UHGV virus genome: UHGV-0209512
Source of the DNA: a virus
Strand: one strand, 5' to 3'
Length of the DNA: 59,753 bases
Part shown: piece by piece, positions 49,100-50,648 of the stretch
How the letters are laid out: every line of letters begins with the position of its first letter
How positions within the stretch are numbered: position 1 is the stretch's first letter
Position numbers and translations under genes: made by a program
The notes under the pieces: generated by a model
The model's input: the letters and a program-made list of their open reading frames with translations, nothing else
Told to the model about the DNA's origin: nothing
Databases searched by the model: none

Positions 49100-49123
49100 A
49101 AAGGGGCAAACGCCCCTTTCTTT
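49100..49123. terminator. Bidirectional terminator AAGGGGC-AAAC-GCCCCTT between the convergent gene blocks
   Basis: 7-bp GC stem, 4-nt loop, T-run on the plus side and A-run on the other; marks the rightward/leftward boundary. Confidence 0.6.
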
Positions 49124-49403
49124 AACGCTTATGAAAAGCTGACAGGATTGCAAGTGTTACAGCACCCAATCCAACGACGGTAGCATAAGTGAGTTGATGT
49201 TGAACTTTAACAAAACCGTAATAGGTGCTAGGGATCTCCACAACCCCAAACGCCATAGCAAAACTTGTCCCAAGCAGTGCAACAGCAAGGGCGCGTAATA
49301 ACGCCCTGCTCATTGCTGTGAAACCTTTCTCGTTACTGTCTCCGGTCATTATAACCACAATAATAAGAAACAGCGCAACAATTACTAGCAAGTATTCCAT
49401 CAA
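49122..49403 (-). CDS. Membrane protein (93 aa, about three hydrophobic helices)
   Basis: Hydrophobic segments LLVIVALFLIIVVIM, ALAVALLGTSFAMAFGVV and VVGLGAVTLAILSAF. Confidence 0.5.
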   Translation of the reverse strand: MMEYLLVIVALFLIIVVIMTGDSNEKGFTAMSRALLRALAVALLGTSFAMAFGVVEIPSTYYGFVKVQHQLTYATVVGLGAVTLAILSAFHKR

Positions 49404-49606
49404 CGTCTTCTCCTGTACATGTATTGATCATAAGTAGTTGCAATAATAGTGACTGGCCAGCAAACAAGTATACATAGAAGACTTACAATCTTCTCCCAAC
49501 GTTTCTTATGAGCTAGCGCATAATCATAATTATTCCAACAAAAGAAATAAGTCATTGCTGCAATCACAGCACCAATAATGAAATAAATAACTACATATTC
49601 ATTCAT
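49400..49606 (-). CDS. Membrane protein (68 aa, two hydrophobic helices, Arg-rich C-terminus)
   Basis: VVIYFIIGAVIAAMTYFF and IVSLLCILVCWPVTIIA; ends RRRR. Confidence 0.45.
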   Translation of the reverse strand: MNEYVVIYFIIGAVIAAMTYFFCWNNYDYALAHKKRWEKIVSLLCILVCWPVTIIATTYDQYMYRRRR

Positions 49607-49794
49607 TTAGTAAACTCCCAGACCAGATTGTAATTATTCCCTAATGGTACATAACGCCCAGGGCGAGGATCAAAACTTGCAACGGAAAATTCTAAAGTCC
49701 CCGCGCTATATAGTTGTACTTTTTGCCCATCCCACGGTCCGCCAATTAGCTTAAAAGTCTGTCTGTAACCTTTTGCTGCTCTAGCCATATTCAC
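49603..49794 (-). CDS. Hypothetical protein (63 aa)
   Basis: ATG with AAGGAG RBS. Confidence 0.45.
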   Translation of the reverse strand: MNMARAAKGYRQTFKLIGGPWDGQKVQLYSAGTLEFSVASFDPRPGRYVPLGNNYNLVWEFTK

Positions 49795-49801
49795 TCCTTA
49801 A

Positions 49802-49825
49802 AATACCCGCGCGAACGCGGGTATT
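49802..49825. other. Stem-loop AATACCCGCG-CGAA-CGCGGGTATT
   Basis: 10-bp perfect stem; T-run is on the plus side although flanking genes are on the minus strand; possible antisense-readthrough terminator or RNA-stability element. Confidence 0.35.
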
Positions 49826-49831
49826 TCTTTG

Positions 49832-50038
49832 TTACGCTTCCGGTGTTTCCGGTAATGGTTCATTAGGAACAACAATAACGTCAGCTAAAACTTTTAACGC
49901 TTCTTGTTGTTCCGCGGTCATATTATTCCAGTAATAGACGTGAATGTAAACTACTGGTTTGTCACCATGTTGCCACGGTTCGCGACTTACTACATCCGCA
50001 GCTAAATCGCTTGCTACGCTCTTTTCTTTACCAGCCAT
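49832..50038 (-). CDS. Hypothetical protein (68 aa)
   Basis: ORF in leftward operon; acidic C-terminus. Confidence 0.45.
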   Translation of the reverse strand: MAGKEKSVASDLAADVVSREPWQHGDKPVVYIHVYYWNNMTAEQQEALKVLADVIVVPNEPLPETPEA

Positions 50039-50070
50039 GCTAATGTACCCCTTTAAGGTTTTACACGCGG

Positions 50071-50364
50071 CTAGCCCCCAAAAGTACCCCTATGATCAAG
50101 GGTTCTAATGCGCTGCTCCAGCCAACGTGCGTTCTTTTCAAAATGTTTATTGGTACGCGCTGCTTTGCACGCATCAATAATACCTAACTCACATCCAAGC
50201 TGCGTTTGTCCCATCACGTAAGAATTGGTTAACATGCTGGATACAAGCTCTTCACATTGTAACTTAATAGGATGGTCTTGGCATAGTTTCTTTGCTGCAT
50301 CTTTTAAATCCGCAGCTTGGACACCAGGAGCTATCAGCAAAGTTACGAGCAATAAACGTTTCAT
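50071..50364 (-). CDS. Secreted/periplasmic small protein with N-terminal signal peptide (97 aa)
   Basis: MKRLLLVTLLIAPGVQA-AD looks like a Sec signal with AxA cleavage site; four Cys in the mature part. Confidence 0.5.
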   Translation of the reverse strand: MKRLLLVTLLIAPGVQAADLKDAAKKLCQDHPIKLQCEELVSSMLTNSYVMGQTQLGCELGIIDACKAARTNKHFEKNARWLEQRIRTLDHRGTFGG

Positions 50365-50648
50365 TATGCTTTCCCTTTACGACATAAGGCTTGAAGTTCC
50401 AGAAGCGCATCAATGTCTTCCTGTGGAGTTACGCCAACGTGAATTGGATATTTAGAGCGGCATTCGTTACCGACTTCAACAGTGTGGTTAATGTAGCCGT
50501 AAACACATCCACCAATAACAGTGAAGATAAGCGCAACAATCATTGTAAGGTACTTACCTTGTTTGCGTTCTTCATTTTGTTTATTAAGCTGACGGTTAAG
50601 TTCTACCGCGTCGATTTTACCTTTATTGTAATCGTCTACTAAGCTCAT
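50364..50648 (-). CDS. Membrane-anchored protein (94 aa) with one TM helix
   Basis: ORF 50364..50720 trimmed to ATG 50646-50648 after GAGGAG; charged N-terminus, TM YLTMIVALIFTVIGGCVYGYI. Confidence 0.45.
   Translation of the reverse strand: MSLVDDYNKGKIDAVELNRQLNKQNEERKQGKYLTMIVALIFTVIGGCVYGYINHTVEVGNECRSKYPIHVGVTPQEDIDALLELQALCRKGKA

Follow-up and report, generated by a model that had tools for sequence, protein, structure and literature searches.

Six small genes between the replication and the late genes

The window analysed here is the whole stretch of 59,753 nucleotides of the virus genome UHGV-0209512, which identity and synteny assign to a Seuratvirus coliphage. Where its replication genes, which run leftward, converge on the rightward-running late genes, the DNA polymerase gene is followed by six small genes, gpA to gpF (Table 1). 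A preliminary description had located a run of small membrane and secreted proteins at 49122-50648, and these limits coincide exactly with the stop of gpF and the start of gpA. It had named two polytopic membrane proteins, a single-pass membrane protein and a signal-peptide-bearing periplasmic protein with four Cys, all on the minus strand downstream of the polymerase gene. Hydropathy and residue patterns confirmed these four envelope proteins and their layouts. Signal peptide and topology prediction, based only on Kyte-Doolittle hydropathy and the positive-inside rule, gave a Sec signal for gpB and one, two and three helices for gpA, gpE and gpF, respectively. The inventory was incomplete, however, as the soluble products gpC and gpD had been left out. 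Targeting of four of the six products to the inner membrane or periplasm is supported by these sequence features. Small membrane proteins are encoded by about 8 of 90 genes genome-wide (a rough estimate from a crude gene call), and their clustering at this locus goes only modestly beyond chance.

Table 1. Positions of the genes and hairpins discussed in the text
Feature	Position	Strand	Description
polB (DNA polymerase)	50713-52698	-	upstream of the six small genes
Hairpin with T-run	50676..50706 (stem 50703-50683)	-	just upstream of gpA; terminator scan
gpA (Seurat gp29, PhiDruSM1 ORF35)	50364-50648	-	94 aa, single-pass membrane protein
gpB (Seurat gp28, ORF34)	50071-50364	-	97-aa precursor, Sec-secreted (predicted)
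gpC (Seurat gp27, ORF33)	49832-50038	-	68 aa, acidic, soluble
GC-rich palindromic hairpin, flanking T/A runs	49801..49826		between gpC and gpD; terminator scan
gpD (Seurat gp26, ORF32)	49603-49788	-	61 aa, basic, soluble
gpE (Seurat gp25, ORF31)	49400-49606	-	68 aa, two hydrophobic helices
gpF (Seurat gp24, ORF30)	49122-49400	-	92 aa, three hydrophobic helices
Bidirectional intrinsic terminator	49099..49120		serves the gpF transcript as well as the late genes (+) converging on it
Endolysin	23081-23518		first gene of the lysis cassette
Three-helix holin	23555-23899		directly after the endolysin
i-spanin	23880-24356		lysis cassette
o-spanin	24214-24519		overlaps the i-spanin; lipobox ICAGC

A Shine-Dalgarno sequence is present for each of the six genes. 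The gene overlaps in the window read TAATG, ATGA and TGATG, and both the Shine-Dalgarno sites and the coupled starts are conserved in relatives. Each protein matched a PHROG family of its own over nearly the full length of protein and profile, with E-values from 1e-27 to 1e-65 (gpA, phrog_26834, E 1.5e-64; gpB, phrog_23744, E 2.3e-65; gpC, phrog_22730, E 1.5e-47; gpD, phrog_12090, E 1.7e-27; gpE, phrog_23919, E 2e-48; gpF, phrog_15669, E 7e-49), and all six families are annotated 'unknown function'. Pairwise dN/dS values, calculated with relatives down to 70% DNA identity, were 0.01-0.38, which indicates that the six genes are under purifying selection. We are highly confident that the region consists of six small Seuratvirus accessory genes in two translationally coupled sub-modules, as set out below.

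Conserved hairpins divide the run

The preliminary description had placed the genes at the end of a polymerase operon. This part is uncertain, as one hairpin with a T-run parts the polymerase gene from gpA and another parts gpC from gpD. The hairpin upstream of gpA folds at -17 kcal/mol, and its core, CTTGCAGAcCCTTCgcGGGTCTGtTTTAATA, is near-invariant in six lineages regardless of the preceding gene. It occurs once, and no second copy was found within the window. In the Seurat GenBank record it is labelled a terminator; a role as attenuator or as some other cis element is also conceivable. The gpC/gpD hairpin folds at -18.5 kcal/mol, is terminator-like on both strands and is kept in STP-SP5 despite altered loop and stem bases. 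For the hairpin at the end of gpF, the Seurat annotation gives a bidirectional terminator, with which the terminator scan and folding agree, and equivalent hairpins lie 3' of gpF in STP-SP5, yong3 and 9NA. The run is divided by the conserved hairpins into A-B-C and D-E-F. We infer the expression timing and operon structure as follows: the six genes would probably be transcribed with the early/middle replication genes, either by read-through of the hairpins or from a promoter of their own.

The gpA-gpB-gpC module

Kyte-Doolittle analysis of gpA showed one hydrophobic segment at approximately residues 34-53. Because five K/R lie in the 15 residues before this segment and two after it, gpA is probably a single-pass inner-membrane protein with N-in/C-out orientation. 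The predicted cytoplasmic N-terminus is conserved (DDYNKGKI..ELNR), as is the predicted periplasmic tail of about 40 aa with its two invariant Cys, C63 and C89, whereas the membrane helix is not conserved. An AF2 model (pLDDT 82) contains a long helix (14-66) and a second helix (76-90), and a Foldseek search of BFVD and PDB with this model returned only its own orthologue. The dN/dS values of gpA were 0.03-0.28.

The N-terminus of gpB, MKR-LLLVTLLIAPGVQA followed by AD, comprises MKR as n-region, a hydrophobic core of 12 residues and a VQA-A site. It looks like a Sec signal peptide with predicted cleavage after VQA, which would leave an 80-aa mature helical protein in the periplasm. C28, C37, C58 and C66 (C-x8-C ... 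C-x7-C) are invariant in all seven members of the family. There is no lipobox Cys near the gpB cleavage site VQA-ADL, and none of the seven has a lipobox. When 1.84 billion representatives were searched exhaustively with the gpB profile (HMMER), just three new true relatives emerged, each of this type, besides a repeat protein that matched spuriously. The AF2 model, in which the chain forms four helices, is of low confidence (pLDDT 55), and with it no fold neighbour was found in the PDB. The predicted product is a small helical periplasmic fold with two disulfides.

The gpA stop overlaps the gpB start by one base (TAATG) and the two genes are always adjacent. This overlap is kept in STP-SP5, yong3, L019 and L020, with gpA about 43-51% identical in STP-SP5 and yong3. 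Within the E. coli Seuratviruses, the identity of either protein is 95% or more. Further away they diverge, gpA to 53% and 46% and gpB to 69% and 31%, where the polymerase is 92% and 80% identical; such fast divergence appears typical of host-interaction genes. In sequence searches gpA was confined to Seuratvirus, and by this evidence gpA and gpB are genus-restricted orphans. The ratio in which the two proteins are made is probably fixed, and they would act as a pair that faces the periplasm, for which we infer physical contact between them as well as disulfides in gpB. The third gene of the module encodes gpC, whose tail is rich in Pro. STP-SP5 and L019 have gpC, and it is missing from the syntenic region of yong3. 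As a whole, the A-B-C module is confined to Seuratvirus.

The gpD-gpE-gpF module

The stop of gpD overlaps the start of gpE (ATGA). gpD is under very strong constraint, with dN/dS of 0.01-0.06 and dS saturated against some close relatives, and its distant homologues are found in Erwinia, Vibrio and Klebsiella phages. gpE ends in RRRR, and its orientation is ambiguous by the positive-inside rule. It was found only in the Seuratvirus E. coli clade, with a possible counterpart of 27% identity in yong3, and is missing in STP-SP5.

For gpF (dN/dS 0.04-0.06) an N-out/C-in topology is predicted, with a C-terminal tail of four residues, FHKR. The loop between helices 2 and 3, predicted to be periplasmic, carries the invariant motif YYGFVK.QHQLTYA. 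gpF is also present in 9NA-like, Sashavirus and eiAU phages at 51-55% identity, and it was the last gene before the convergent terminator at every locus examined. This distribution indicates horizontal exchange of gpF between three groups of virulent Enterobacterales siphoviruses.

Distribution and dispensability

In JenP1, of the sister genus Nonagvirus, only 70 bp separate the polymerase gene from the convergent late genes. As the sister genus is without these genes at the polymerase/late junction, the run appears to be a Seuratvirus-specific accessory insertion. In VogelGryff, a deletion has cut gpE to 36 codons and removed gpF; such natural gpE/gpF-less variants are available in the BASEL collection. 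No copy of the genes was found in 5,426 E. coli genomes, and gpF was found in none of 185,579 GTDB species-representative genomes. A word-indexed search of 5.8 billion proteins with gpA, gpB and gpF returned close Seuratvirus relatives only. Judged from these searches, the genes are restricted to virulent phages.

PhiDruSM1 is a close relative (93% identical) of the phage studied here. In its knockout library each of the six genes was deleted singly (preprint 10.1101/2024.04.14.589459, Table S1), as we established by mapping the deletions through their primer sequences. This preprint was the sole relevant item that we found in the functional and transcriptomic literature on the six genes. The deletion mutants still formed plaques (10.1101/2024.04.14.589459), and the six genes are non-essential, at least for plaques on laboratory E. 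coli. Only the deletion of gpD (ORF32) altered a defence phenotype among the six, that of BREX type I; the screen covered defence systems and not exclusion (10.1101/2024.04.14.589459). The genes for the DNA polymerase and the sliding clamp are also listed there among those that can be deleted (10.1101/2024.04.14.589459), and its essentiality calls are therefore imperfect. Loss in relatives, absence from Nonagvirus and the single deletions are consistent with an accessory role, though they are not specific to any of the functions proposed. The cluster is an ordinary kind of phage accessory gene set and is dispensable.

Comparison with known phage systems

T4 Imm (in the membrane) and Sp (in the periplasm), which act early in superinfection exclusion, block DNA entry, and Sp does so by inhibiting the tail-associated lysozyme. 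Imm is an 83-aa polytopic inner-membrane protein, to which gpE and gpF are similar in size, compartment and replication-gene setting. The T4 genes imm.1 and imm come immediately after gene 43, which encodes the DNA polymerase, and share its strand; the likeness to gpA-gpF is one of position. When the alignments of gpA, gpE and gpF were compared with Imm by hhalign, the probabilities were 0.1-0.8%, and no Imm-annotated PHROG was matched. The Sp precursor has 97 aa, including a signal peptide, and its small periplasmic domain contains Cys; gpB is alike in architecture only and has four Cys, compared to two in mature Sp. By BLASTP gpB and Sp gave no match, and hhalign aligned them with 9.5% probability over 29 columns consisting of the signal peptide and the first mature residues. 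No Sp structure was among the PDB fold matches of the weak gpB model.

In layout gpB also matches T4 RI, a protein of 97 aa in which an export signal at the N-terminus precedes a small, helical periplasmic domain that contains a Cys pair. However, the start of gpB has the look of a cleavable Sec signal, rich in Leu and with a VQA site, whereas RI has a signal-anchor-release domain. T4 RI binds the large periplasmic domain of its holin, and the holin in the window is without such a domain. gpA and gpB resemble a spanin pair in that their genes lie side by side and overlap, one encoding a membrane protein of N-in/C-out orientation and the other a protein with a signal peptide, but the periplasmic part of gpA (about 40 aa) is too short for the periplasm and gpB has no lipobox Cys. 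gpA/gpB do not show the long coiled coil together with the lipobox lipoprotein of a two-component spanin.

Cor and Llp of T1- and T5-like phages are, like gpB, small exported proteins acting at the envelope. They are lipoproteins, whereas gpB has no lipobox. Seurat gp20 is annotated 'putative lipoprotein'. In this phage group, Cor/Llp-type genes sit in the receptor-binding-protein locus beside the J-like gene (BASEL, PMC8594841). E. coli phages of this kind are reported to use different terminal receptors (BASEL, PMC8594841); if the gpA/gpB alleles do not co-vary with receptor type, they would not be receptor-specific blockers of the Cor/Llp kind.

A match of gpB residues 1-56 to the T4 Vs 'valyl tRNA synthetase modifier' family (phrog_1256, E 1e-3) was rejected as signal-peptide likeness only; hhalign aligned gpB and Vs over just 18 signal-peptide columns with a probability of 2.9%. 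Apart from this match, no PHROG of known function was found. BLASTP and hhalign comparisons with T4 Imm, Sp, RI and Vs were all negative, sequence searches of the PDB with gpA and gpB returned nothing, and no match of the six proteins to Pfam, NCBIfam or PADLOC rose above noise (the sole PADLOC match, gpF to the membrane region of ZorA at E 0.098, is meaningless). Altogether, sequence, profile and fold comparisons linked the six proteins neither to Imm, Sp or RI nor to holins, spanins or Cor/Llp.

Proposed function and alternatives

Our best overall explanation, held tentatively and at somewhat less than even odds, is that the genes are accessory modules whose envelope products modify the infected cell. 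The products would enter its inner membrane and periplasm and modify the envelope to the advantage of the phage. The best single guess would be a block of DNA entry by later phages, in the manner of T4 Imm and Sp. Of the three roles put forward in the preliminary description, superinfection exclusion or other envelope modification is plausible, exclusion specifically is possible though doubtful, and the weakest candidate is lysis timing. A low probability is given to a joint reading in which gpF is a horizontally mobile membrane protein whose invariant loop would address a conserved inner-membrane component of Enterobacterales hosts, and gpA and gpB form an undescribed Seuratvirus-specific two-component unit unrelated to Imm/Sp or Cor/Llp. 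In that case the bitopic gpA and the disulfide-bonded gpB may block phage DNA entry or disarm an envelope-based host function.

The products might instead serve host takeover or counter-defence at the envelope, inhibiting a membrane-associated defence or a host process (division, peptidoglycan or membrane-protein turnover) and not other phages. Envelope localisation, fast divergence and accessory character would be equally expected here, the conservation of gpA on both sides of the membrane suits binding of a host partner, and the neighbouring gpD has the BREX I phenotype in PhiDruSM1. Yet the single deletions of ORF30, 31, 34 and 35 left the outcome with every defence system in the PhiDruSM1 screen unchanged, and PADLOC, Pfam and NCBIfam gave no link, so that we regard this alternative as unlikely.

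Control of lysis timing, with gpB/gpA as an RI-like antiholin or gpE/gpF as accessory holin or antiholin types, is improbable. It would fit the size and layout of gpB, with 97 aa and an export signal as in T4 RI and Sp, and the holin-like topologies of gpE (two helices, charged C-terminus) and gpF (N-out/C-in). However, a full endolysin-holin-spanin cassette was found at 23081-24519, about 25 kb from the six genes and on the opposite strand, in agreement with the earlier statement that they are not part of it, and the holin in it is a compact three-helix type without a sizeable periplasmic domain for an RI-like partner. The hhalign comparison with RI gave 10 signal-peptide columns at a probability of 0.3%, the gpF C-terminus of four residues is not a charged holin tail, and neither gpE nor gpF combines such a tail with a place in the cassette beside the endolysin. 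Moreover, the six genes sit among replication and not late genes, and the PhiDruSM1 deletion mutants still made plaques. As the Seurat record names an endolysin only, the six genes were also considered as the 'missing' holin and spanins; the cassette in the window itself rules this out.

We consider it similarly improbable that gpF, and perhaps gpE, is functionally tied to the convergent late-strand module (a Gly-rich protein, orf122, orf176, orf94 and the Cys-rich orf67), for example as 'immunity' to, or a partner of, a membrane-active product. In three phage groups that are unrelated, namely Seuratvirus, 9NA-like phages (gp13-15 versus gp16) and eiAU (gp08-11 versus gp12), the gene convergent with the end of this module is gpF. 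In VogelGryff, gpF and most of gpE were deleted along with orf122 to orf67, and the first module protein carries a long, Gly-rich and hydrophobic stretch at its N-terminus. On the other hand, the orf176 module is found in 141 phage records and gpF in 54, and the module therefore mostly occurs without gpF. In JenP1 and KarlJaspers the polymerase or SSB gene converges directly on the module, and exchange of one recombination block including the shared terminator would explain the linkage. None of the late-module proteins has an assigned function.

That the ORFs are chance frames or decaying functionless remnants can practically be dismissed: they are short, without known domains, singly deletable and in part naturally missing from relatives, but low dN/dS alongside numerous synonymous changes where DNA identity is 70%, the preserved signal peptide, Cys pattern and loop motif, the conserved Shine-Dalgarno sites and coupled starts and a PHROG family for each ORF all speak against it.

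Added here to what was described before are the division of the run by hairpins, the contrast with Nonagvirus, the orphan gpA/gpB pair, the spread of gpF, the loss of gpE/gpF and the mapping of the PhiDruSM1 deletions. Few phage genes are as poorly understood as those for small early proteins of the membrane and periplasm. A few of these proteins, namely T4 Imm and Sp, T5 Llp and HK97 gp15, control whether a cell can be reinfected, which is of importance for phage cocktails and therapy. The six ORFs have already been deposited in more than 35 genomes. The cluster is a tractable case, with single-deletion mutants existing for a 93%-identical phage and gpA/gpB forming a compact conserved unit.

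The gene run and its products

Over 30 genomes of Seuratvirus (Queuovirinae), among them Seurat, CAjan, slur01, GottfriedDienst and VogelGryff (both BASEL), and Dru_SM1, match the 1.8 kb around the gene run at 92-97% identity. The six small genes, gpA to gpF, correspond to gp29 to gp24 in the Seurat record, where all are annotated as 'hypothetical protein'. Four of the six products are predicted to be envelope-targeted. As the preliminary description had proposed, topology and signal peptides were predicted: hydropathy gave one membrane segment for gpA, two for gpE, three for gpF and none for gpC and gpD, and the positive-inside rule placed gpA N-in/C-out and gpF N-out/C-in, the orientation of gpE being ambiguous. 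The N-terminus of gpB (MKR-LLLVTLLIAPGVQA/AD, no lipobox) resembles a classical Sec signal peptide, and all seven known members of the family share its four cysteines (C-x8-C ... C-x7-C) without exception. Gene calls, hydropathy and this signal peptide bear out the earlier claim that membrane and secreted small proteins follow the polymerase gene, with correct coordinates and description; the soluble gpC and gpD, which sit between the envelope proteins, had been missed. Two more small proteins with two hydrophobic helices are encoded elsewhere, at 22091-22276 (+, 61 aa) and 11136-11324 (-, 62 aa).

All six genes are preceded by a Shine-Dalgarno sequence, and every protein belongs to a separate PHROG of unknown function (E 1e-27 to 1e-65). 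Pairwise dN/dS was 0.01-0.38 against Seurat, Dru_SM1, slur01, VogelGryff and, as far as 70% identity, Salmonella phage STP-SP5. Divergence is much more rapid in the envelope proteins than in the polymerase: identities in STP-SP5 and Hafnia phage yong3 are 53% and 46% for gpA and 69% and 31% for gpB, compared to 92% and 80% for pol. Constraint on the basic, soluble gpD is extreme (dN/dS 0.01-0.06). In comparisons with Dru_SM1 and VogelGryff its dS reaches saturation although the neighbouring genes are nearly identical, implying allele exchange. Distant homologues occur in Erwinia, Vibrio and Klebsiella phages, and gpD may be the most functionally tractable of the six genes.

Features of the gene run, the convergent late-strand module and the lysis cassette
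Feature	Coordinates	Strand	Remarks
DNA polymerase (pol)	50713-52698	-	661 aa; six small genes downstream
Hairpin + T-run, pol/gpA interval	50703-50683	-	terminator scan, folding
gpA	50364-50648	-	94 aa
gpB	50071-50364	-	97 aa
gpC	49832-50038	-	68 aa
Hairpin + T-run, gpC/gpD interval	49826-49801		terminator scan, folding
gpD	49603-49788	-	61 aa
gpE	49400-49606	-	68 aa
gpF	49122-49400	-	92 aa
Hairpin + T-run 3' of gpF	49120-49099		bidirectional; terminator scan, folding
Late-strand module	46916-49092	+	Gly-rich 234-aa protein, orf122, orf176, orf94, Cys-rich orf67
Endolysin	23081-23518	+	complete lysis cassette
Three-helix holin	23555-23899	+	complete lysis cassette
i-spanin	23880-24356	+	complete lysis cassette
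o-spanin	24214-24519	+	complete lysis cassette; overlaps i-spanin; lipobox ICAGC

Organisation of the gene run

Start and stop codons overlap between gpA and gpB (TAATG), gpD and gpE (ATGA) and gpE and gpF (TGATG). The preliminary description had placed the genes at the 3' end of a polymerase operon, which is a reasonable reading of their minus-strand position downstream of pol; however, a hairpin with a T-run separates pol from gpA. Given the hairpins and overlaps, it is more accurate to treat the run as a pair of sub-modules, A-B-C and D-E-F.

The pol/gpA hairpin is present as a single copy in the window. Across six lineages its context of about 45 nt (TAAAT..ACTTGCAGACCCTTCGCGGGTCTGTTTTAATAT) hardly varies, and is kept despite an extra small ORF toward pol (STP-SP5, comparison locus L020) or toward gpA (comparison locus L019). 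In these lineages the element (50676-50720, minus strand), made up of the hairpin and TTTTAATAT, has changed less than the coding sequence on either side; such conservation exceeds the need of a plain terminator. It may also carry a candidate promoter or processing site: TTGCAG and TTTAAT, spaced 17 nt apart, lie within it, and a predicted promoter may therefore overlap the hairpin. A sigma-70-like site also lies within gpC (49922-49950, minus strand; TTTACA, 17 nt, AATAAT, extended -10, 10 of 12 matches). It recurs at the equivalent position in STP-SP5, which may reflect gpC coding constraint, since it overlaps the most conserved codons.

Distribution across phages and hosts

Both gpA and gpB are present in every Seuratvirus examined (36 and 35 records, respectively; tblastn), and neither was found outside this genus in 50,697 phage records or in IMG/VR, which gave Seuratvirus contigs only. 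An exhaustive search with a gpB profile, covering 1.84 billion representatives, added three relatives, all secreted four-Cys proteins of about 90 aa; two are on metagenomic contigs that keep the order pol-gpA-gpB(-gpC) and the TAATG overlap. The strictly co-inherited, translationally coupled gpA/gpB pair is the most coherent unit of the run, with gpA predicted to be membrane-anchored and conserved at both ends and gpB its predicted disulfide-bonded periplasmic partner.

The remaining genes vary. gpC is absent from yong3 and gpE from STP-SP5; gpE is found in the E. coli clade only, yong3 having a possible counterpart at 27% identity. In VogelGryff gpE is cut to its first 36 codons and gpF is missing, which indicates a deletion. 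In JenP1, of the sister genus Nonagvirus, pol converges directly on the late genes, 70 bp apart; all six genes together are thus an accessory insertion at the convergent junction, specific to Seuratvirus. gpF occurs in 54 records (Seuratvirus, the 9NA/Sashavirus group and Edwardsiella phage eiAU; 51-55% identity). No copy of the genes was found in 5,426 complete E. coli genomes, and no gpF in 185,579 species-representative bacterial genomes.

In 9NA-like phages (loci L013-L017) the gpF homologue always follows a conserved protein of 53 aa that carries two cysteines and, at its N-terminus, a hydrophobic segment; the 9NA counterpart is gp17 (L005, 3285-3446). One contig (L017) carries a frameshifted gpF. 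The receptor-binding locus, between the J-like tail-tip and long tail-fibre genes, also differs in content in this phage: it holds a 326-aa ORF (42366-43346, minus strand), whereas the corresponding position in Seurat, GottfriedDienst and Dru_SM1 is occupied by a small gene of 234 nt, labelled 'lipoprotein' in two of the three.

Comparison with known proteins

Searches of Pfam, NCBIfam, PADLOC and PDB sequences with the small proteins gave no match. The sole PHROG match bearing a name, of gpB to 'valyl tRNA synthetase modifier' (E 1e-3), was rejected, as hhalign showed signal-peptide similarity only; the spurious match arises because T4 Vs has a signal-peptide-like N-terminus. T4 Vs (L018, 5387-5734) also has four cysteines in two pairs, odd for a cytoplasmic enzyme modifier. 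In the AF2 model of gpA (pLDDT 82), residues 14-66 form a long helix that passes from the cytoplasm into the periplasm, and residues 76-90 a C-terminal helix; Foldseek against BFVD and PDB found no neighbour of this model beyond its own orthologue. The low-confidence gpB model has four helices and no fold neighbours.

Possible functions

We tentatively suggest that the products would modify the envelope of the infected cell early in infection; the best guess, itself less likely than not, is exclusion of later-arriving phages. The gene run follows pol here, and in T4 imm.1 and imm likewise come immediately after the polymerase gene. gpE and gpF resemble T4 Imm in architecture only. The resemblance of gpB to T4 RI and T4 Sp, in both layout and size, is architectural as well; when profiles of the gpA, gpB, gpE and gpF families were compared directly with these three T4 proteins, no relationship emerged.

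We consider it unlikely that these proteins act in host takeover or in counter-defence at the envelope. Ojima et al. built a single-ORF deletion library of PhiDruSM1 (bioRxiv 10.1101/2024.04.14.589459), which is 92.7% identical to the gene-run region. Mapping their Table S1 primers identified ORF35, 34, 33, 32, 31 and 30 as gpA to gpF and ORF36 as the polymerase. Deletion mutants were obtained for all six genes; the preprint also lists the polymerase and clamp as deletable, and its authors call the essentiality classification imperfect. Only ORF32 (gpD) is listed with a changed defence phenotype, for BREX type I, and deletions of the four envelope genes had no effect on any defence system in that panel.

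The Seurat GenBank record names only the endolysin, the genes after it being 'hypothetical', and we therefore checked the six genes as the missing holin and spanins. This was ruled out by the complete cassette at 23081-24519 (+), in line with the earlier statement that the run is not part of it. A role in lysis timing, despite the Sp- and RI-like layout of gpB, we consider improbable.

It is very doubtful that gpF is functionally tied to the convergent late module. In 9NA and eiAU too, gpF stands last before a convergent terminator and faces homologues of orf176, orf94 and orf67, with those of orf122 and the Gly-rich protein also present in eiAU; the VogelGryff deletion takes out the late block together with gpF and most of gpE. 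However, the orf176 block (141 records from Seuratvirus, Nonagvirus, 9NA-like, Drexlerviridae, eiAU and Yersinia phages) usually occurs without gpF, as in JenP1 and KarlJaspers. Among the loci examined, the block closes the tail-fibre region in JenP1, KarlJaspers and eiAU and is beside the terminase gene in 9NA. We read the linkage as probable exchange of one recombination block across a shared terminator. Within the module, the Gly-rich protein has a CCC motif and a C-terminal GCC, and orf122, labelled 'putative pyrophosphatase' in BASEL, weakly matches PRA-PH/MazG-like pyrophosphatases (E 0.009).

The sequence of the gene run gave no sign that it is a system of a new kind. The run is an accessory set of a well-sampled genus, variable and dispensable: real, accurately described and ordinary. 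Because deletion mutants and natural variants exist, its function can be addressed quickly at the bench.
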